A stretch of DNA of 64,000 bases, from contig CAVQRZ010000023.1 in the NCBI GenBank assembly GCA_963715335.1, positions 96,001 to 160,000 of the forward strand, read 5' to 3'. The notes beneath the pieces were generated by a model. That model searched no databases and was not told the origin of the DNA. It saw only the letters and a list, made by a program, of their open reading frames with translations. Every line of letters begins with the position of its first letter. Positions within the stretch are counted from its first letter, which is position 1. Positions 18,159 through 28,212 of this stretch are shown here, piece by piece. The DNA comes from an uncultured delta proteobacterium. Lineage in GTDB: Bacteria; Desulfobacterota; Desulfuromonadia; Desulfuromonadales; BM103. The translations under genes were made by a program, and so were the position numbers.

Positions 18159-19781
18159 ATGCCGGAATTCTTTTACCAGAACCCGTATCCCGTCGGTGCA
18201 GACAAGACCAGCTACTACAAGGTCGAAGGTTCGGAGAAGTATGTCTCCGTCGAAAGCTTCAATGGTCGGGATGTCCTCAAGGTCGATCCGGAAGCACTGA
18301 CTGTGTTGTCCAGCATTGCCATGAAGGATGTGTCCTTTCTGCTGCGCAAGGAGCACAACGAGCAAGTCGCCAAGATTCTGATGGACCCCGAAGCCTCCCG
18401 TAACGACAAGGGTGTGGCGATGGCATTCCTGCGCAACGCCATGGTTTCGGCCCAGTTCGAACTGCCGACCTGCCAGGACACCGGCACGGCAACTATCGTT
18501 GCCAAAAAAGGTCAACAGGTCTGGACCGGTGTTAACGATGCGGAATATCTTTCCAAGGGGGTTTTCAAGACTTACACCGAAGAGAACCTGCGCTACAGCC
18601 AGACCGTGGCCCTTGATATGTACGAAGAGAAGAACACCGGCACCAACCTGCCGGCGCAGATCGACCTTTACGCCACAGAGGGTGACGCCTACAAGTTCCT
18701 GTTCGTAGCAAAAGGTGGCGGTTCCGCCAACAAGAGCATGCTCTATCAGGAGACCAAGGCGCTGCTCACCCCGGAGAAGCTCTTTGACTATCTGGTCGCC
18801 AAGATGAAAACTCTCGGCACCGCAGCCTGCCCTCCTTACCATCTCGCCTTCGTCATCGGCGGGACCTCGGCCGACGCAGTCATGAAGACCGTCAAGCTGG
18901 CGACTGCCAAGGAACTCGACAATCTGCCGACGGTCGGCAACGATCACGGCCAGGCCTTCCGTGATATCGAGCTGGAGAAGAAACTGCAGAAAGCTGCCCA
19001 GGACCTCGGCATCGGTGCCCAGTTCGGCGGCAAGTACTTTACCCACGATGTCCGCGTCATCCGCCTGCCCCGCCACGGCGCATCCTGCCCGCTCGGCATG
19101 GCGGTTTCCTGCTCGGCTGACCGCAACATCAAGGCCAAGATCACCAGAGACGGCCTGTTTGTCGAAGAGATGGACCGCGATCCGGGCCGCCTGCTCCCCG
19201 AGCAGTATCGTATGGCCAAGCATGAGCATGGTCACAAGGTCGACCTCAACCAGCCGATGGAAGCCATCCTCGCCGAGTTGACCAAGCTCAAGTGCGGCGA
19301 CGCCCTGTTGCTCAACGGCACCATCGTGGTCGGTCGCGACATCGCCCATGCCAAGTTCAAAGAGATCCTCGACAGCGGCAAACCATTGCCCGACTACCTG
19401 AAAAAACACCCGATTTACTACGCCGGACCGGCCAAGACCCCTGCCGGCAAACCATCAGGCTCCTTCGGCCCGACTACGGCCGGCCGGATGGACTCTTACG
19501 TCGGCCTGTTACAGGAGAACGGCGGCTCAATGGTCATGATCGCCAAGGGCAATCGCTCGCAGCAGGTCACTGATGCCTGCAAGAAATTCGGTGGCTTCTA
19601 CCTCGGCTCCATCGGCGGCCCGGCCGCCTTGCTCGCCGAAGAAAACATCAAGAAGGTCGAGTGCATCGACTTCCCCGAACTCGGCATGGAAGCTGTCTGG
19701 CAGATCGACGTCGTCAATTTCCCGGCATTCATCCTGGTTGATGATAAGGGTAACGACTTCTTCAAGCAGTTGGGTCTGTAA
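18159..19781 (+). CDS. fumA: Class I (Fe-S) fumarate hydratase
   Basis: [39 protein letters not shown]. Confidence 0.95.
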
Positions 19782-19790
19782 ATCAGCCAA

Positions 19791-19866
19791 CAAAAAGCCC
19801 CGGGGATTTCCCGGGGCTCAGATTGTTGACGAACCCTGCACGTGATGCGGGGTTCGTTTTTTTTTG
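19791..19866 (+). terminator. Tandem hairpins / intrinsic terminator after fumarase
   Basis: AGCCCCGGG-GATTT-CCCGGGGCT and ACGAACCCTGCA-CGTGA-TGCGGGGTTCGT followed by a T-run. Confidence 0.8.
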
Positions 19867-19894
19867 CCTGTCAGGTGGAGTATTTATGAAGTTT

Positions 19895-20445
19895 AGGGCA
19901 ACAGATGGTTAATCTGTTGCCCTCGTTCTCTTATTTGAGATCCAAACACAAAAGTTGAAGAACAAAACCGTCGGGGTTGCCCGACAGCAACTTCATTTTC
20001 TTTGTAGCGACAAAGAAAGGAAGCAAAAGAAAGCTTGGCGCTACGCTGGGCATGTCTGGCTCGGCAGGGCGGCGACCTCAATGCAGAACGTTCTAAACGA
20101 TCAAGAGTCTACGCTTCACCCGCAGGAGCCGAGGCTCTTGAGAGCCTCTCCTGCTGTGGAGACTTGCGTTGATAGAGGTTGTTTTGGCTTTTCCCTGGTA
20201 GATCACACGGCAAGGTCAGGCCCTTTGACACAGGGCCGGATCACCATCACAGCGGGTTCTTGAAGTCACAGACATCCGGCAAAGGAGATGCCCTCCGCAA
20301 GGAGAAGGCACTTTTGCATACTTTTGTTGCCGGACAAAAGTATGGCGTCGGGCGGGACGCGACCCGCCGGTTTTGCTTTTAAGCTTTTCAAGAAAAGCAA
20401 AAAGGGCAACAGATTAACCATCTGCTGCCCTCTCTATCATGAATT
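19895..20445. repeat. Dispersed structured non-coding element, copy 1 (MITE/REP-like or ncRNA)
   Basis: Aligns along its length with 45948-46470. Bounded by inverted palindromes GGGCAACAGAT-GGTTA-ATCTGTTGCCC and GGGCAACAGATTAACCATCTGCTGCCC. Confidence 0.85.
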
Positions 20446-20546
20446 CAGGTTAAACTTTTACAGCAGCCCCGCCCCGGGGGTTTCCGGGTGTTTTTAATTT
20501 CATGGCGGCGAAGAGAAGACTATTGAGAGAAGACAAGCTGAGATAC

Positions 20547-22361
20547 CTATCGTCCCTGATAAAACCCGGCCTGGGCATTATAAAGACCGGCATAAGCACC
20601 AGCAAGCCGCAACAGCTCAGCGTGGGTTCCTTTCTCGATAATCATTCCATCATCCATCACATATATCCGATCAGCCAACTGCACTGAAGAAAGACGGTGG
20701 CTGATGATCAGCGCGCTACGTTGACCGATGACATTGCGAAACGAACGGATCATCTCAGCTTCAGCCAGAGGGTCGAGGGAACTGCTCGGTTCATCAAATA
20801 TCATCAGGTCAGCGCTACGGAACCAGGCCCTTGCGAGAGCGAGACGCTGCCACTCACCAATACTGAGCTCCTGACCGGCCTGAAAATGCGTGCCGAGCTG
20901 CGTATCAATGCCATCAGCAAACCGGTTTATGAACTGGTCCGCACCAGCAATTTTTGCCGCAGCAGTCAATTCATCAGCATTTGCTTCCTTCTCTGAATCT
21001 CCCAGCCATATGTTCTCGGAGATTGGCAGATCGAATTGTGCGAAATCCTGGCTCACAACACTCAAATGGCGACGCCATGACCTCGGCAAGAACAATTTCA
21101 GGTCCTTGCCTTCCCAGCTAACCTGTCCTTCATCAGGGTCGTAAAGCCGGCAAATTAATTTTGCCAGGGTTGTCTTTCCTGCTCCATTCACCCCAACCAA
21201 AGCGACTATCTCACCTGGACGTACTTCGAGATTCACATTCTTTAGAGTATGCTCCTTACGACTTGGATAAGTGAATGAGAGATCACGACAGACAAGCCCC
21301 AAGGCTGCCGGCTCCGGCACGAAACTTTGTCCGTTCTCCAGCTCAACCTTTACCGGTAGGTCAATCAAATCATAAAAATGTCTCAAGAACAGGTTGTCCT
21401 CATAGAGCCAACCCAGCCCCTGAAGAACATTCTGCAGAGCTGTCAAGGCTCTCTGATAACCTTGAAAATACATAACGATAACACCAAGAGTCATCGCCCC
21501 CTGGATCGCCACAAAAACCATCGCGGCCAGAGTTCCATATAGTGCGATTGTTGCACCGCCCTGCGCCAGGATGTCGCGCCTGACACGCCTTTTACTGATG
21601 TCGAGGCGCCCCTGACGCAACTTGTCACGCAAATCCCGGTAACGCCCACGGAATAAATCACCGATACCCAGCAGACGGATTTCACGAGCAAAATCAATAC
21701 TGGTCATCATCCAGTGGTAGAACCAGGCTTGCCGTTCGAGTTCAACCCGGTCTCGCTCAAAGGTATAGAGTTGGCGGGCATAGATAAGACGCACCAGCCC
21801 TGCAGGGACAGCGGCCAGAAGGAGAGCCAACCCAACGGCCCAATGAAAGGAGAACAACAGCCCGACGATACCAAAAAGTATCAGGAGGTTCTGCAGAGTC
21901 TGCTTCAACCCATTGACGATGTTGGCCGGACGTGACAAGGCGTCTTGTTGAGCAAGATGGAGGGTATTGTGATATGCAGGGTCTTCATAATAACCGAGAT
22001 CGACTGCAATTGACTTTTCGTGGATAAGGTCTGAGACAAAGTCAGAGACAGCCAGAGATTGTGCTTCCGTGACATATGCAGCGATACTGTTAATTGACGC
22101 AGTCGCCAACGCGACCAGGCCAGCAAGCCCGACCCAGATTAAAACTTGCGTTACCGCACCGTCACCTCTTTCAAGCAATGCGGCACCGAGAGAATCAACT
22201 ATCTGCTTCAGCAGCAACAACGCGAACACCGGCAAAGCCGTCTGTACTATCATCAACAACAGGCTTGCAAGAGTCCAGCGAGGGGTTGCTGCCCAAACCA
22301 GTCGCCAGGCACGGTGCAGATTGAAGATTCCTTTGATTCGCATTTTTATCGAACTATTCAT
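20547..22361 (-). CDS. ABC exporter, fused permease/ATPase (peptide-exporter type, no C39 domain)
   Basis: N-terminal TM helices, GVNGAGKTT, LSIGEWQRLALAR, IFDEPSS, ISHR. Start trimmed to MNSSIK. Confidence 0.9.
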   Translation of the reverse strand: MNSSIKMRIKGIFNLHRAWRLVWAATPRWTLASLLLMIVQTALPVFALLLLKQIVDSLGAALLERGDGAVTQVLIWVGLAGLVALATASINSIAAYVTEAQSLAVSDFVSDLIHEKSIAVDLGYYEDPAYHNTLHLAQQDALSRPANIVNGLKQTLQNLLILFGIVGLLFSFHWAVGLALLLAAVPAGLVRLIYARQLYTFERDRVELERQAWFYHWMMTSIDFAREIRLLGIGDLFRGRYRDLRDKLRQGRLDISKRRVRRDILAQGGATIALYGTLAAMVFVAIQGAMTLGVIVMYFQGYQRALTALQNVLQGLGWLYEDNLFLRHFYDLIDLPVKVELENGQSFVPEPAALGLVCRDLSFTYPSRKEHTLKNVNLEVRPGEIVALVGVNGAGKTTLAKLICRLYDPDEGQVSWEGKDLKLFLPRSWRRHLSVVSQDFAQFDLPISENIWLGDSEKEANADELTAAAKIAGADQFINRFADGIDTQLGTHFQAGQELSIGEWQRLALARAWFRSADLMIFDEPSSSLDPLAEAEMIRSFRNVIGQRSALIISHRLSSVQLADRIYVMDDGMIIEKGTHAELLRLAGAYAGLYNAQAGFYQGR

Positions 22362-22445
22362 AGATCCTATCCACATGGAGTCATTACATTTTTCACCAGA
22401 AACACATAAAAAAAATATGCATACTATAGCATTTAAATCATATAT

Positions 22446-22475
22446 TTGTCGTAACAACCATATTCGACATATAAT
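22446..22475 (+). promoter_or_regulatory. Putative sigma70 promoter of the scmC-peptidase unit with overlapping inverted repeat
   Basis: TTGTCG-N18-TATAAT in an AT-rich divergent gap; TGTCG...CGACA dyad. Confidence 0.45.
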
Positions 22476-22484
22476 AGCTGCCTT

Positions 22485-23372
22485 ATGTCTGATCGTGACA
22501 AAATATACGGGCAAGAACTTGCTATTGGCCCCCTCATCTACCACCTCTATGCGATTGATGAATGGGGCGCAAGTATTCTTCATGGAATCAGCACACATCT
22601 TGCCTGTAATGAAATTTCGAGAACGGCTGATCGAATAATATTATTGTTTCATAATGAGCCGGCAGCCTTTACTTCGAAAAAAGTTCCCGCCGCTTTTTCA
22701 ACCTGTGAAGTTGAAGAAGATTCGTGGTATTTCCGCAAAAACCTGATTGACACGACCTGGCAATCGGATCAATCAACCTGCACCTTCTGGTCAGCAGGGG
22801 TTGACACGTTAATCGGGCCCGTTCGTTTTCATCTTCCATGGAGCCTTGTTGTTGATGATCTTGTTGCACGGGGGGGAGGACTGATCCACGCCGGGCTGGC
22901 CGACCACGGAGGCTCCGGATATCTGTTTGCTGCCCCGCCAAGCGGCGGTAAGAGCACAACATTGGCAACAGCCCCAGCCGAGTGGATGATTATGAGTGAT
23001 GACGCTGCTCTCGTCTGGCCAGACGAAAATGGCTGGCTGGCCAGTCCCCTGCCATCCTGGGGAGACCAACTCAAGCCTGACGAGCCCTGGCCCTGGCCAC
23101 AGATGGCGCTTGACTCGACTTGCGCTCTGAGCAACATTTTGCAGCTTGATAAAGGCGCCCATGTCGAACTCGCCAGGCTGAAAGAGTCAGCGGCCCTCCC
23201 CTTTATCTACCAGGCTTTAAGTGAGTATCCCGTCATTATTCTGGCAAACATCAGTTATAGAGAAGAATACTTCCGTAGCGCAGCGCAAATGGCCCGCGTT
23301 CTCTCAACATGGCAGCTTACCCTGCCGAAGCATGGCGACATCTGGCACCTGCTCCAGCAGAGAACCAAATGA
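22485..23372 (+). CDS. scmC: HPr-kinase-like P-loop protein (SynChlorMet ScmC-like)
   Basis: GLIHAG, YLFAAPPSGGKST, MSDDA; context of rSAM, PqqD and peptidase genes. Confidence 0.7.
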   Translation: MSDRDKIYGQELAIGPLIYHLYAIDEWGASILHGISTHLACNEISRTADRIILLFHNEPAAFTSKKVPAAFSTCEVEEDSWYFRKNLIDTTWQSDQSTCTFWSAGVDTLIGPVRFHLPWSLVVDDLVARGGGLIHAGLADHGGSGYLFAAPPSGGKSTTLATAPAEWMIMSDDAALVWPDENGWLASPLPSWGDQLKPDEPWPWPQMALDSTCALSNILQLDKGAHVELARLKESAALPFIYQALSEYPVIILANISYREEYFRSAAQMARVLSTWQLTLPKHGDIWHLLQQRTK

Positions 23373-24010
23373 ACACACTAACCAACACCTTCATATACAA
23401 AGGCAGAAGCATGTGGCCATGTTTTCAGGAAGGCGACCTCCTGGTGCTGGCTGACATCGAATTCAACCAGATTCGTGCAGGCGATTGCATAGCGTACCAG
23501 AGGACCAGCGGCAGAAAAGCGGTGCACCGTGTAGTTGCGCTTCAAAGCTCACTTATCACACGCGGCGATTCTTTACCTTGCGTTGACACTGAATCGGTCA
23601 AATCGGAGCAGGTTATAGGGCGGGTTGTGAGTTTTTATCGCTTCGGCAGGCGGCATCAAGTTGTCGGAGGGTTCATAGGCAGGATTGTGGGTCTGTTCTA
23701 CCGATATGCAGGCCGTATCGATCCGCAAAGACAGGCGCGAGGCGGCTGGCTAGCGCGCAAAATCCGCTTTTTCAGCATGGCGATACTGAAAACAATTCAA
23801 TGTGATGGGAAAGCTGAGAGGCTTAAACTTGATGGGGCAGATGAATTGAAGGTGTGGACTATAGCCGGGAGGGTTATCGGACAACAGGATCAGGACTCAA
23901 GGCAATGGAAGATTGCCTGGCCATGGATGTTTTTGTTGAAATCAGGGAGACTTTTAAGATGGGGCAGAGGTCTTATTTTTCGCCGTTACCTACAGAACAG
24001 TAAACACTAG
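23369..24010 (+). CDS. S24/S26-family (signal-peptidase-like) peptidase
   Basis: GRSMWPCFQEGD (catalytic Ser), GDCIAY, VHRVV, TRGD. ATGA overlap with the upstream gene. Confidence 0.8.
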   Translation: MNTLTNTFIYKGRSMWPCFQEGDLLVLADIEFNQIRAGDCIAYQRTSGRKAVHRVVALQSSLITRGDSLPCVDTESVKSEQVIGRVVSFYRFGRRHQVVGGFIGRIVGLFYRYAGRIDPQRQARGGWLARKIRFFSMAILKTIQCDGKAERLKLDGADELKVWTIAGRVIGQQDQDSRQWKIAWPWMFLLKSGRLLRWGRGLIFRRYLQNSKH

Positions 24011-24179
24011 CTCCATTGCCACGCGTACAGTTACCCTGGTTTGACGCCCCTGACCCAGATGCGCATTGGGTTGGACCGCCAGGCGTGGGCGTAGTACCAG
24101 TCGCGCATTCACCGAAAATCGGCTGACATGAGTCAACAGACCTGACCATCGGCTCTTTCCATAAACGCTTATTACTCAT
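23973..24179 (-). CDS. Putative RiPP precursor peptide (68 aa, WxxP leader, four CxxG repeats)
   Basis: GAGGGGG RBS; co-oriented just downstream of two rSAM genes; Gly/Ser/Thr/Cys-rich core. Confidence 0.8.
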   Translation of the reverse strand: MSNKRLWKEPMVRSVDSCQPIFGECATGTTPTPGGPTQCASGSGASNQGNCTRGNGASVYCSVGNGEK

Positions 24180-24282
24180 ACAACAGCCCCCTCAAAAATG
24201 ATTTCCGCGATTATAGCCCTATCCGGGTATCTTGCCAACCCCCAGATTATGTAGCCAATCTGCAAGATGAGCCTCGACACCT

Positions 24283-25356
24283 TTAGCCTCTGCGCCTCTT
24301 TAACGGGAACAACCCTTGTTCAGCGGCTTGTTGACAGAACCAGTATGGTGCCAGCAGGTCACCGGAGAGCTGATAATTGGAGGCGACACAACTACCAAGG
24401 CAGTTTTCCTGCATCAAACAATCACGGCAAATCCCCTGAAGACTCTTCGGCAAGCCTTCCCTCAGGCCCATAAGCACCTGGTGGCTCTGCCAAATCTCCT
24501 TGAGCTTTACTGACATGACAGCACCCATCGACAGTTCCGGAACATGTTGACCAACACCACACAACGAGTAGGCCCCTGAGGGCAGGATGCCGAGCACGTG
24601 CATGATGTTACAGACCCCGTCATCCTCCCCGGAGATTATGCGTGAGAGAGGTCGGAAAGCATGTGGAACGCCCATTTGAATGGGGAGGCTGAACTGCTGT
24701 GACCACTTCTCAGAAACTTTTGCAGATATATCCAGGATCTCCTTGATACTCAAGGCATCTCCTTCATTAGAGAGGGTCTCAGCTCTCAGGACCGGTTGCA
24801 GCACGTTCAGTTTGACTGCGCCAGCGCCCAACCCCTCAGCCAGGGCAAAAAAATCAGGCAGTTGTCTTTTGTTCGATTGTTGCAAGGTCAAAATCAATTC
24901 AGGACGGAAACCCGCGCCAACCAATGCGCGAATCCCCATAATGGTTTTTTTAAAACCACTTTTGACGCAGCGAATCGCATCGTGGGTCCTGTCATTTGCT
25001 CCATCCAGGCTCACGGACACCCTGCTCACTCCGCTGTCCCGCATCAAGCTTGCCAGTTCATCATTAACCAACATACCGTTAGTCTCGACAATCGCCTCTA
25101 GATTGTATTCTCTCTGCAAATCAAGAAGCTCACGGAAACACGGATGCAGTGTCGGTTCCCCGCCAGTCCACTTGATGGCAGAAAGACCCAACGGGAGAGC
25201 CTGTTCGATGGCATGCCTCAATATTCGCGGCTCAAGGACAACTTGCTCATCCTGCTTTTGACGTTCCGGCACGAACCAGCAATGCCGACAAGCACAGTTA
25301 CAACCACTGGTCAGGTAAGCATAGAAGGTATTCAATGTCGGCACAGTCACGGCCAT
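24283..25356 (-). CDS. scmF: Radical SAM/SPASM peptide maturase (ScmF-like)
   Basis: YLTSGCNCACRHC, WTGGEP, ETNG, SVSLDG, SPASM cysteines CRDCLMQENCLGSC. Confidence 0.8.
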   Translation of the reverse strand: MAVTVPTLNTFYAYLTSGCNCACRHCWFVPERQKQDEQVVLEPRILRHAIEQALPLGLSAIKWTGGEPTLHPCFRELLDLQREYNLEAIVETNGMLVNDELASLMRDSGVSRVSVSLDGANDRTHDAIRCVKSGFKKTIMGIRALVGAGFRPELILTLQQSNKRQLPDFFALAEGLGAGAVKLNVLQPVLRAETLSNEGDALSIKEILDISAKVSEKWSQQFSLPIQMGVPHAFRPLSRIISGEDDGVCNIMHVLGILPSGAYSLCGVGQHVPELSMGAVMSVKLKEIWQSHQVLMGLREGLPKSLQGICRDCLMQENCLGSCVASNYQLSGDLLAPYWFCQQAAEQGLFPLKRRRG

Positions 25357-26456
25357 AACGATAGCCCCTCTGCTGCAAGTTTCTCCTGAAATCGTTTGAG
25401 ACAGGTCGACGGGCATGGCTGGTCAACTTTCCCGGTCGCTGTAAACGCCGTACCGGGACAGTTCCCGGTACAACTTGACTGCCATTCACACAGACGACAT
25501 TCGTCAAACTCTTCAAGCGCAATTTCCCACCGTTCACGCAACCGGCATAATGACTCGGCATTCTGCCAGACCTCAACCAGTGGAGTCTCTCCGACCTTGC
25601 CGAGGACCATGTGCGGCAGCATGACACAGGGGATATAAGCACCATCTGAACGAACCGCAAGGCTGTCGTAAATACAGCCACAACCGACCAGACGTCCCCG
25701 ACCCGGCACAGGAGTCCCAGACCGTCGTGCCTCCTCCATTTCACTGAACATACGCCAGTCCGCCAGAGGCCCTGCATTTGCGCGAATCCGCCCCGGATAT
25801 TGTTTGTCAAGGTTCGCCATGATTTTTATCGCTTTTAAATGCTCTCTGGTGTTAAGCAAAACACCCGTGCCGTATTTTGTCGAAGTCCCGAGCGAGGAAG
25901 CGGCATTGGTACTGAAAGAAGGGAGCCTCAGTTCTGTCAGCAATAGTCGTGCGATTTTCGGAAGGTCATCTATATTGCCGGGATGGATGGTCACTCTGAC
26001 TGTTACTGGCAGTTTGGTACTCTGCAAAGCTCTGATTCCTGATAACGCCGGCTCAAATGTTCCCTTACCGCGAAGACTTTCATGAATTTCTGCTGTCGAG
26101 CCATCCAGTGACACCTGGACCATGTCACACCGGCCTGTCTGCTGCAGGTGAACAGCAATTTGCGAGGTCAGGAAACTGCCGTTGGTCAACACGGAAAAAC
26201 GCATGCGATTGGCAACAATCCCGTCAACCAAGTCTAAAAAATCATCCCTGATCAACGGTTCACCACCCTGCAGGGTTACATTCATCACCTGGCAGTTTGC
26301 CAGTTCCTCGAAAAAGGTTAACCAGAATTCAGTAGGCAGGTCGGCGTAGATTACATCAGGGTTGTTAAGATAGTAACAATAGCTGCAGTTCGCGTTGCAG
26401 CGGCTGGTAATTTCAAGATCCAGAGAGCGTGGAGTACGCATCACTTGCGGAGACAT
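25347..26456 (-). CDS. scmE: Radical SAM/SPASM peptide maturase (ScmE-like)
   Basis: EITSRCNANCSYC, LQGGEP, QVSLDG, GCGC, CRLCEWQSSCTGNC, PCPSTC. TAATG coupling with the upstream PqqD gene. Confidence 0.8.
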   Translation of the reverse strand: MSPQVMRTPRSLDLEITSRCNANCSYCYYLNNPDVIYADLPTEFWLTFFEELANCQVMNVTLQGGEPLIRDDFLDLVDGIVANRMRFSVLTNGSFLTSQIAVHLQQTGRCDMVQVSLDGSTAEIHESLRGKGTFEPALSGIRALQSTKLPVTVRVTIHPGNIDDLPKIARLLLTELRLPSFSTNAASSLGTSTKYGTGVLLNTREHLKAIKIMANLDKQYPGRIRANAGPLADWRMFSEMEEARRSGTPVPGRGRLVGCGCIYDSLAVRSDGAYIPCVMLPHMVLGKVGETPLVEVWQNAESLCRLRERWEIALEEFDECRLCEWQSSCTGNCPGTAFTATGKVDQPCPSTCLKRFQEKLAAEGLSLWP

Positions 26457-26761
26457 TAATCCTGCTCCCAAACCCCTACAGCACCGAGGATTGCTAATGT
26501 CTCCATTAAACCAATGACCTGCTGGGCCGTCGAGTCATCAATGCCCTCGTATCTGTTCCTTAGGCAATCAACAACTTCACCCAGGCTACGTTTTCCATCC
26601 AGCAACTTCCATACGTCAACCGCCGTGCTGTTGAGCATCTGCACCTTTCCATTATCAGGGTCAAACAACAGCGCGCAATCATCGTCTTCGATGCGCAGAA
26701 CGAGACCTGGATTGACCGCCAGGCGACTGTCCATATCGATTTTCAATTCGTTGTTATCCAA
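26456..26761 (-). CDS. scmD: PqqD/RRE-family peptide chaperone (ScmD-like)
   Basis: VLRIEDDDCALLFDPDNGKVQMLNSTAVDVWKLLDGKRSLGEV is a typical PqqD pattern. Confidence 0.85.
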   Translation of the reverse strand: MDNNELKIDMDSRLAVNPGLVLRIEDDDCALLFDPDNGKVQMLNSTAVDVWKLLDGKRSLGEVVDCLRNRYEGIDDSTAQQVIGLMETLAILGAVGVWEQD

Positions 26762-26782
26762 AGGAATCCTTAATAGAAGAGA

Positions 26783-27070
26783 CTATTCTATTGGCAGCTT
26801 TACAACGAGACCGTGACGTAGAGCGAAACCAAGGATGGATCGAGTCTGTCGTTCAGCATCAGCCCGGTTGAGGTCAAAGTTCTGCAACAGGAAATTCAAA
26901 CAATCACTACGGTTAAAAAATCGTCCTTCAGGCAGCAACGACGCCTGCTCGAAGAGCGCCGCGGCAGCGTGATTGACAGTAACCATCACATCCCGATTAG
27001 CAATCAGCATAACTGCATCCTCGTCAAAAAATTCAATGAAAACATGAGGAGAGAGTTGGTAGCAATCCAC
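26783..27070 (-). CDS. Second, divergent PqqD/RRE-like protein
   Basis: 95 aa, EFFDEDAVML...VNHAAAALF...FDLNRADAERQTRSIL; size and pattern fit an RRE fold. Confidence 0.55.
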   Translation of the reverse strand: MDCYQLSPHVFIEFFDEDAVMLIANRDVMVTVNHAAAALFEQASLLPEGRFFNRSDCLNFLLQNFDLNRADAERQTRSILGFALRHGLVVKLPIE

Positions 27071-27100
27071 CAGGCGTACACCTTTCGAATATGATCCTTC

Positions 27101-27130
27101 ATGTTAGTTGTTTTACAAGTGGACTGTCAA
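27101..27130 (-). promoter_or_regulatory. Putative sigma70 promoter of the PqqD-rSAM-precursor operon
   Basis: Minus strand TTGACA-N18-TAACAT. Confidence 0.55.
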
Positions 27131-27169
27131 ATAAACGGAGGGATGAAATCATTCACCGCCAGAGAATGA

Positions 27170-27872
27170 TCAAAACCCTGACAGCGCCATCAGCAGCGGC
27201 AGGAGAAAGGTTGTCATCAGACCATTCAACCCGATCGCCAAACCAGCAGCGGCACCGGCAAGACGGTTGACCTCGAGCATTCTCGCCGTACCGATGCCGT
27301 GGGCGGACGTGCCGATCGCAAGCCCCATCGACACCGGGGAAGTCACACCGATGCGGCGGCAGAACTCCGGGCCGCAGACCGCCCCGAGACAACCGGTCAG
27401 AACGACCAGGGCGGCGGTCAGAGGCGCAATGCCACCGAGCTTGTCAACGATACTGATGGCAATCGGTGTGGTCACCGACTTCGGTGCCAGGGAGAGGATC
27501 ACCTCCCGGCTGCCACCGAGGAGCCAGGCCAGTCCGCAGGCTGAAATAATCGAGGCGAGAGAGCCGGCAAAGATGCCGGCCAGGATCAGTCGCTTGCGTT
27601 TCCAGATCTCTTCACGGCGCTGGTACAGAGGGACTGCCAGGGCAACCACGGATGGACCGAGCAGGAACAGGATCATGTCGCCGCCACGGGCATAATCACG
27701 GTATTCGATCCCGGTGCCTTTAAGCAGCAGAATGATTGCAACGATCGCCAACAGGACCGGGTTGGCCCATACGCTGTTGACGCGCCGGTAGAGGGTTTGC
27801 GCCAAGCAGGTAGACGACCAGCGTCAGGCCGATGCCGAACAGCGGAGTCTTGACCAGTTCAGCCCACATCAT
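27170..27872 (-). pseudogene. lrgB: LrgB/CidB-family protein with an apparent +1 frameshift near 27805
   Basis: LGPSVVALAVPLY, PKSVTTPIA, HGIGTARM. The natural N-terminus (MMWAELVKTPLFGIGLTLVVYLL) is in another frame. May be a sequencing error. Confidence 0.7.
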
Positions 27873-28212
27873 CGCTCCCCCGGTTTTCGAGTTTCTGGGC
27901 CAGCAGACCGGTGACAGCCATGACTACAAAAGTACTGATTATTGTTGCGACGGTAATCGGCAACCATTCTGCAGCGATCAGGTCACTGTAAACCATGACG
28001 CCGACGCCGGCCGGGACAAAGAACAGCGTCATGTTGGACAGCAGGATTTCCGCTGCCTCCTCGATCCATTTCACATCAACCCAGCCGACAATTAAACCAA
28101 GCAACAGCAGCCCCATCCCCATGACGTTACCTGGAATCGGTAAGCCCAGGGACCGGCTGATGATTTCACCACACAGCTGGAACAGCAGCAGGAATGTCAG
28201 ACCACGAACCAT
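27859..28212 (-). CDS. lrgA: CidA/LrgA-family holin-like protein
   Basis: LPIPGNVMGM, LFFVPAGVGV; adjacent to lrgB. Confidence 0.92.
   Translation of the reverse strand: MVRGLTFLLLFQLCGEIISRSLGLPIPGNVMGMGLLLLGLIVGWVDVKWIEEAAEILLSNMTLFFVPAGVGVMVYSDLIAAEWLPITVATIISTFVVMAVTGLLAQKLENRGSDDVG

Follow-up and report, generated by a model that had tools for sequence, protein, structure and literature searches.

Gene organisation of the locus

The window, by which we mean the whole 64,000-nt stretch of DNA analysed here, contains a 68-residue reading frame within a compact gene cassette. On the minus strand, the genes run in the order second RRE-like gene, ScmD, ScmE, ScmF and the small reading frame; ScmC and an S26 family peptidase oppose them on the plus strand, and an ABC exporter lies beyond. 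These genes, and the features assigned within and upstream of the small reading frame, are as follows.

20547..22598, minus: ABC exporter (permease and ATPase), without a C39 peptidase match
22485..23372, plus: ScmC, HprK/PEPCK-like P-loop protein, predicted kinase (TIGR04249, 67.5 bits, cut-off 125)
23309..24010, plus: S26 family peptidase, Ser-His type, candidate leader peptidase (TIGR02228, 52.9 bits, cut-off 51.85)
23973..24179, minus: ScmA-type precursor peptide, 68 aa
23988..23999, minus: module 4, Cys61-x-x-Gly64, within the antisense overlap with the S26 gene
24018..24029, minus: module 3, Cys51-x-x-Gly54 (translation and alignment)
24054..24065, minus: module 2, Cys39-x-x-Gly42 (translation)
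24096..24107, minus: module 1, Cys25-x-x-Gly28 (translation and alignment)
24111..24179, minus: predicted leader, residues 1-23, with a Gly two residues before the first module Cys; putative cleavage site
24150..24161, minus: W-K-E-P, putative (Y/W)xxP RRE recognition motif; Pro invariant in the family alignment A1
24187..24193, minus: ribosome-binding site GAGGGGG, 7 nt before the ATG
24210..24238, minus: sigma-70-like promoter site between ScmF and the precursor gene, 11 of 12 consensus matches
24283..25416, minus: ScmF radical SAM/SPASM protein (TIGR04251, 382 bits, cut-off 400; 7 auxiliary-cluster Cys)
25347..26471, minus: ScmE radical SAM/SPASM protein (TIGR04250, 447 bits, above the cut-off of 400)
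26456..26761, minus: ScmD, discrete PqqD/RRE protein (PF05402, 48.8 bits, passes; TIGR04248, 64.5 bits, cut-off 100)
26783..27070, minus: second, divergent RRE-like protein (profile match to the ScmD alignment, probability 90.6, E 1.3e-6)

Each of the ScmC, ScmD, ScmE and ScmF models is the top NCBIfam match of its own gene, and the cassette genes searched are single-copy in the genome, the ABC gene excepted. ScmF matches TIGR04251 over its full length (E 2e-114), the next family scoring 143 bits. The second RRE-like protein belongs to a group in which 7 of 12 members give a PqqD match, the best at E 0.001. ScmC has a PEPCK-like fold and matches HPr kinase weakly (E 3e-4); its invariant residues are H135, G155-K156-T158 and D172-D173, and the His, the Walker A motif and the DD pair are present in 24 of 24 sequences. 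By analogy with HprK/PEPCK enzymes, we take these residues to be a putative intact phosphotransfer site. The S26 protein keeps the G-x-S-M-x-P serine motif in 21 of 22 sequences, and His replaces Lys in 21 of 22; its hydropathy profile contains no strongly hydrophobic segment and no clear membrane anchor. The terms S26 and signal peptidase are absent from the available portion of a 2023 review of RiPP proteases (PMC10885120). The true start of the ABC exporter is probably downstream of the longest-ORF start. As judged by these profile matches, the cassette is a complete SynChlorMet set with two RREs, two radical SAM/SPASM enzymes, an HprK-like kinase, an S26 peptidase and an ABC exporter.

An LrgB/LrgA (CidB/CidA-like) pair is located at 27170-28212, directly upstream of the cassette. 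On the other side, at 19800-20470, lies an intergenic element of approximately 650 bp with 57-nt inverted arms and palindromic ends. Many copies of this MITE-like or REP-like element, 80-95% identical, are spread over at least four genome contigs among the matches listed. A search of 19700-27400 against Rfam gave 0 matches.

The small reading frame is conserved as a gene

The minus-strand translation of 23973-24179 gives the peptide quoted in a preliminary description of this DNA, and the plus strand is interrupted by stops; that description had the peptide right but left its strand unstated. Similarly, the overlap with the peptidase gene that it mentioned is real, though it had not said that the overlap is antisense, tail-to-tail and 38 nt long. 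The corresponding gap in 7 other S26-adjacent precursor genes ranges from +21 to -8 nt, compared with the 38-nt overlap here. The WxxP leader motif was found in the translation as W7-K-E-P10, and the GAGGGGG ribosome-binding site was confirmed at its place upstream of the ATG.

Of the 63,236 stop-to-stop segments in the genome from which the window comes, a profile of the precursor family matched this reading frame only, at an E-value of 1.3e-14, with the next segment at 0.088. The profile of alignment A1, described below, likewise found it as the only match in the 3.3-Mb genome. Comparison with 10 homologues gave pN/pS values of 0.32-0.55, as uncorrected proportions with synonymous sites near saturation, and third codon positions were the most changed in 10 of 10 comparisons. 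The frame is open in 11 of 11 genes and the other frames are mostly interrupted. A promoter-like site similar to that at 24210..24238, ending 27-36 nt before the ATG, was found in 10 of 13 precursor genes of the clade and in 0 of 70 other cassette genes, by a rule that was fixed after the sites had been seen and in 13 genes that are kin; the mean in 1000 shuffles was 0.03. No terminator-like site was found at the convergent junction of the precursor and S26 genes.

The reading frame is short and overlaps another gene, and its exact peptide sequence is absent from a collection of 15 billion proteins, features that would also fit an antisense frame open by chance or the remains of a decayed gene. 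This explanation is extremely improbable in view of the pN/pS values, the frame that is open in all 11 genes, the ribosome-binding and promoter-like sites and the homologues found at 79% and 71% identity. These comparative data indicate that the reading frame is under selection, looks like an expressed gene and belongs with the cassette. Codon-level selection, the positionally conserved promoter-like site and the tight co-occurrence described below support the earlier proposal that it encodes the precursor of the adjacent radical SAM cassette, an assignment that we regard as almost certain from the sequence comparisons.

Precursors of the same type accompany ScmF in other genomes

A first set of loci was collected around ScmE (13 of 233 genomes of the order) and ScmF (34 of 401 genomes of the phylum). 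A leader-plus-CxxG pattern applied to this set yielded 43 peptides, 42 of them unique, since the L001 and L019 peptides are identical. A precursor homologue was detected in 40 of the 50 loci, a circular count since the profile was built from the pattern's own peptides; for 2 of the 10 misses, the precursor was located on another contig of the same genome. Because of this circularity, alignment A1 (38 rows: the window peptide, P0002, P0003 and 35 of the other 42 seeds) was tested on an independent set of metagenome loci chosen by ScmF alone, being the best 80 of 375. An A1 match was present in 56 of these 80 loci, with 33 of 41 at a locus length of at least 5 kb, 23 of 27 at 8 kb or more and 11 of 12 at 12 kb or more. 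ScmE was located beside ScmF in 26 of the 27 independent loci of at least 8 kb, and L091, L144 and L163 contain ScmF and a precursor without an adjacent ScmE. When genome contigs were scanned with a single sequence, only 1 locus was recovered, and plasmid sequences gave no ScmF match at E 1e-30.

Within the window's family, the precursor was found in 14 of 44 genomes, which are kin and not independent samples, and all 14 carry the cassette: 12 have an ScmE match and 2 have a full but frameshifted cassette. The remaining 30 genomes, many of them incomplete assemblies, have neither ScmE nor the precursor. The GC content of the cassette (20547-27070) is 50.9%, lower than in its two flanks (53.8% and 54.8%) and in the genome (55.5%). 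This low GC content and the patchy presence within the family are consistent with gain and loss of the cassette.

The NCBIfam model for the SynChlorMet precursor, TIGR04252 (SCM_precur_ScmA; 49 positions, cut-off 35 bits), gave no match at all to the window peptide, and neither did Pfam or any other NCBIfam model. The preliminary description had anticipated that standard annotation could miss this gene, and this proved correct. TIGR04252 matched 17 of the 38 A1 rows at E-values up to 10, among them P0003, which is 71% identical to the window peptide. The A1 profile retrieved 1,714 representatives at 50% identity with E ≤0.001, not all of which are true members. Among its best 150 matches, 139 have the leader and are at most 300 aa long, and at least 3 long leaderless matches resemble unrelated repeats. 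When the window peptide, P0002, P0003 and these 139 were combined (142 proteins, leaving out 11 that were long, N-terminally extended or leaderless), TIGR04252 matched 58 at E ≤0.05 and only one passed its cut-off, P0135 (36.5 bits), which had been found via the A1 profile. Since TIGR04252 passes 1 of 142 relatives and misses the window peptide, the family appears to be far larger than catalogued. The window peptide is thus ScmA-like by homology and position and not a member by the curated model, and the locus as a whole is, on gene content and homology, a divergent member of the named SynChlorMet RiPP system. A search of the ESM Atlas returned only unnamed hypothetical clusters.

The existence of the TIGR04252 model rules out the notion that no SynChlorMet precursor had been identified before. 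Relatives also appear in the literature, where the part of a 2023 supplement available to us (PMC10288494) lists at least 6 peptides that, judged by eye, have the same leader and CxxG repeats. They are entered as 'Other Uncharacterized, Singleton' beside radical SAM pairs (ACD90945/6, BAI60956/7, EFK06542/EFK06501, PKN39435/6, PLX72413/4 and RQW89553/4 in PMC10288494). The accessible main text of that paper contains neither 'Scm' nor 'TIGR04'. There were 0 matches in 2 supplementary files of PMC9062424, whose network files may lie outside these, and 0 in 1 small supplementary file of PMC12710340, whose large datasets lie outside it. Searches for SynChlorMet product chemistry, ScmE/ScmF and ScmA/TIGR04252 found no relevant paper within a coverage that leaves out most subscription journals. 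Three of the singleton rows presumably come from founding SynChlorMet organisms.

The precursors combine an RRE-type leader with repeated CxxG modules

The family leader begins with basic residues, followed by (Y/W)xxP, two hydrophobic positions and often a Gly at position -2 from the first module Cys (17 of 42, 61 of 139 and 31 of 61 precursors in three sets). The distance from (Y/W)xxP to the first CxxG is 18-21 residues in 39 of 42 precursors. Binding of a WxxP leader by a discrete RRE has been demonstrated experimentally for StsA and StsC, according to the accessible part of PMC12710340. In the window, a modelled complex of ScmD and the leader scored 0.42 compared with 0.01 for the best of 3 controls, with contacts agreeing by at least 85% between runs and a partner pLDDT of at least 55. 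Of 157 solved pairs, 116 reach the mark used for such models, as do 2 of 215 mismatched pairs; at scores ≤0.60 it is reached by only 18 of the 157 solved pairs and by both mismatches. The co-folding check proposed in the preliminary description lends weak support to binding, as the score falls in the low range shared by both mismatches; the pass may also be explained by likeness to RRE-leader complexes that have already been solved. We consider it very likely that the leader is bound by an RRE.

The preliminary description had noted four Cys residues that each begin C-x-x-G. This is correct for Cys25, Cys39, Cys51 and Cys61, and a fifth Cys, Cys18 in the leader, had been overlooked. Cys18 was considered as a fifth module and rejected, because only 5 of the 42 unique precursors have Cys at this position and 9 have Leu. 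The last three modules continue with S-G, N-G and N-G, in agreement with the (S/N)-G continuation reported earlier, and the Cys-to-Cys spacings across the four modules are 14, 12 and 10. Conservation of (Y/W)xxP and CxxG in homologous loci, proposed as a check at the outset, was borne out for both motifs.

Across the family, Gly occupies position +3 from the core Cys in 98% of 214, 96% of 881 and 83% of 295 modules (three sets), percentages that are inflated because the sets were selected by a CxxG pattern or profile; the overall Gly content of the cores is 23% in the first set. Ala or Pro is present at +6 in 73%, 77% and 53% of modules. Positions +4 and +5 hold variable small residues, and there is no conserved acceptor with a beta or gamma carbon (Asp, Glu, Asn or Thr) at a fixed offset from the Cys, of the kind that a ranthipeptide would have. 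No residues of the module other than the Cys and Gly+3 come close to invariance. Successive Cys residues lie at varying distances, mostly 9-14 and most often 10-11, and the Cys-to-Gly distance is fixed, suggesting that the link is formed inside a module. Many precursors (16 of 42) have an odd number of Cys, which disfavours obligatory disulfides. The suggestion that the peptide might be a multi-core precursor was rejected, because a conserved inter-module cleavage motif was not seen.

The number of modules per precursor ranges from about 3 to 21. P0006, P0029 and P0090 bear the leader, are 214-280 aa long and contain 16-21 CxxG modules, making them protein-sized substrates. P0018 has nine CxxG modules fused to a C-terminal T9SS type A sorting or FlgD-like domain (32.1 bits, cut-off 23), and this predicted fusion hints at surface display.

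ScmE and ScmF are distinct SPASM enzymes

The CxxxCxxC motif is kept in every ScmE and ScmF sequence. Seven SPASM Cys residues were found in 48 of 48 ScmF and 29 of 30 main-clade ScmE sequences, a set with an open site on auxiliary cluster I that looks necessary for a sactipeptide or ranthipeptide synthase but is not diagnostic. Seven-Cys SPASM sets also occur in enzymes that do not form thioethers. ScmE and ScmF form separate clades. At six active-site-proximal positions, taken from the available portion of PMC10288494 and mapped onto ScmE and ScmF by motif adjacency, ScmF is nearly invariant (48 sequences) and four of the ScmE positions vary, suggesting that ScmF makes the constant modification. 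By the same mapping, ScmE and ScmF each match StsB at 2 of 6 positions and both are without the Lys that StsB needs at position 5. The ScmF structural model (pLDDT 89.6) has a SPASM fold and resembles SkfB, BlsE, anSME, CteB, SuiB and PqqE at 14-22% identity. These closest solved structures include thioether and non-thioether enzymes, which the fold searches could not separate.

A divergent ScmE clade (L075-L085, L086 and L088-L090), 27-32% identical to the window's ScmE, also accompanies ScmF. Of its 15 sequences, 14 contain an eighth auxiliary Cys; its active-site residues differ too, and to judge by these residues the clade may carry out a different chemistry.

Proposed maturation of the precursor

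Conservation and linkage speak for the precursor role, and from the sequences we infer each of the chemical steps that follow. The precursor would be transcribed from its own promoter and ScmD would bind its WxxP leader. The two radical SAM enzymes, of which ScmF is the likely core catalyst, would then take an H from the Gly+3 of each C-x-x-G. While bound at the open site of auxiliary cluster I, the sulfur of the Cys would be joined to Gly+3, giving a sactionine in each module and a product with four separate four-residue rings. ScmE may either help ScmF or introduce a further change of a more variable kind, and Ser/Thr residues of the core may be phosphorylated by ScmC. Finally, the soluble S26 peptidase would cut after Gly23 and the ABC transporter would export the product.

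We favour a Cys-Gly+3 sactionine because the Cys-Gly distance is fixed, the auxiliary site is open and StsA and CrpA provide precedents. The thioether rings suggested in the preliminary description are a reasonable, if putative, reading. Against the sactionine, characterised enzymes are all distant (14-22% identity for the best solved structures), ScmE and ScmF are without the StsB Lys at position 5, seven-Cys SPASM sets are shared by enzymes that do not form thioethers, and the window's ScmF, ScmC and ScmD score below their family cut-offs; the invariant Gly could also be a structural turn in a repeat fold instead of the acceptor. A divergent ScmA precursor with four separate four-residue Cys-Gly+3 sactionine rings, and ScmF as the likely catalyst, is overall the best explanation and one that we place slightly on the probable side. 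For the Cys-to-Gly+3 thioether in each module, taken by itself, the balance is even.

The Cys thioether might instead go to another residue, such as the Ala or Pro at +6, a Ser or Thr at +4/+5 or a neighbouring module, or ScmE and ScmF might perform two different radical reactions on each module, as the preliminary description had proposed. The frequency of Ala or Pro at +6, the separate clades of ScmE and ScmF with their differing active-site-proximal residues, the presence of ScmE beside ScmF in nearly all longer independent loci (26 of 27) and the eighth auxiliary Cys of one ScmE clade, suggestive of a different chemistry, all point in this direction. However, near-invariance is limited to one pair per module, the Cys and Gly+3, two radical SAM enzymes can act jointly on one modification, as in thuricin CD, and L091, L144 and L163 have a precursor and ScmF without an adjacent ScmE (these loci come from ScmF-picked sets, and ScmE may lie elsewhere). 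We judge this explanation rather unlikely. A further alternative is that the Cys residues remain free or pair as disulfides within a small metal- or Fe-S-binding repeat fold with a structural Gly, and that the radical SAM enzymes carry out epimerization or C-C chemistry elsewhere. Relatives with 16-21 modules (P0006, P0029 and P0090) look more like a structural protein than an antibiotic, and the sorting-type domain of P0018 fits this too; yet both main-clade enzymes have the seven-Cys SPASM set with its open site, Cys numbers are often odd and the module is without a conserved second metal ligand, so that we hold this fold to be quite improbable.

A wider proposal extends the Cys-Gly+3 sactionine to the whole system: SynChlorMet would be a RiPP class much larger than its catalogue entries suggest, in which ScmF staples every C-x-x-G as a Cys-Gly sactionine (3 to ~20 rings), ScmE carries out another radical reaction, the core is phosphorylated by ScmC and the soluble Ser-His S26 protein acts as a type of leader peptidase absent from the 2023 review of RiPP proteases. 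In this full form, the proposal is doubtful. The topology of a chain of 3 to about 20 four-residue Cys-Gly rings was not found in the available parts of the literature examined.

Comparison with known systems and significance

The locus has the same gene set as the catalogued SynChlorMet system (TIGR04248 ScmD, TIGR04249 ScmC, TIGR04250 ScmE, TIGR04251 ScmF and TIGR04252 ScmA). Compared with the catalogued system, the window's clade adds the second RRE and the WxxP leader, and ScmC and the S26 gene are flipped so that they face the precursor. HprK-like kinases occur in lasso clusters as well. Lasso clusters also share a YxxP-type leader and a discrete RRE, as described in the accessible text of PMC12710340, and differ in that the core here is a Cys-repeat and none of the 8 cassette genes matches a lasso cyclase or B2 protease.

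StsA/StsB/StsC, as far as the available parts of PMC10288494 and PMC12710340 describe it, resembles the window locus in its WxxP leader and discrete RRE. StsA carries proven Cys-to-Gly sactionines made by a SPASM enzyme, the link proposed here for the window locus. StsA differs in its CxCxCx4GxGxG hairpin core and single radical SAM enzyme, and against the StsB model, which has a cut-off of 625, ScmE reaches 91 bits and ScmF 73. CrpA/CrpC from Methanococcus voltae (TIGR04463; available text of PMC13692751) is similar in having repeated C-x-x-X in a Cys-rich substrate and a seven-Cys SPASM enzyme. CrpC is a thioether synthase that forms thioether crosslinks (PMC13692751), and its CxxxCxxC and seven-Cys arrangement is shared by ScmE and ScmF. 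In contrast to the window locus, CrpA/CrpC uses a C-x-x-Q/D motif and forms ranthionines; its substrate is a large protein, its RRE is fused and there is only one enzyme. Thuricin CD is a likeness of another sort, with two radical SAM enzymes in one thioether pathway: in the accessible part of PMC12093266, TrnC and TrnD form a complex acting on two precursors, and two such enzymes can jointly make one modification.

The locus is a complete and compact set with a short precursor of four modules, the radical SAM enzymes ScmE and ScmF, two RREs, a predicted kinase, a peptidase and an exporter. With a defined leader, a predicted cleavage site and a candidate acceptor, its chemistry is open to a single co-expression experiment. 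As the existing ScmA model misses nearly all relatives, a rebuilt ScmA profile would annotate many small genes that are currently called hypothetical. If the Cys-Gly+3 rings are real, the enzymes would offer modular, sequence-tolerant stapling of short motifs.

Variant loci

In L173, L174, L028 and L066, ScmE and other cassette genes are frameshifted, by decay or assembly errors, and in the first three of these the precursor is intact despite the frameshifted cassette. A trio of RRE, ScmC and precursor on the strand opposite to ScmF was found in L118 (7132-8795) and L155 (1311-3017). Precursors in L070 (10205-10693) and L016 (8145-8504) have a long (Thr-Gly)n or poly-Gly linker separating the first from the later modules. 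L070 also has a second precursor copy with a disrupted frame near 1557-2184, and L086 contains parts of two cassettes with three precursors.
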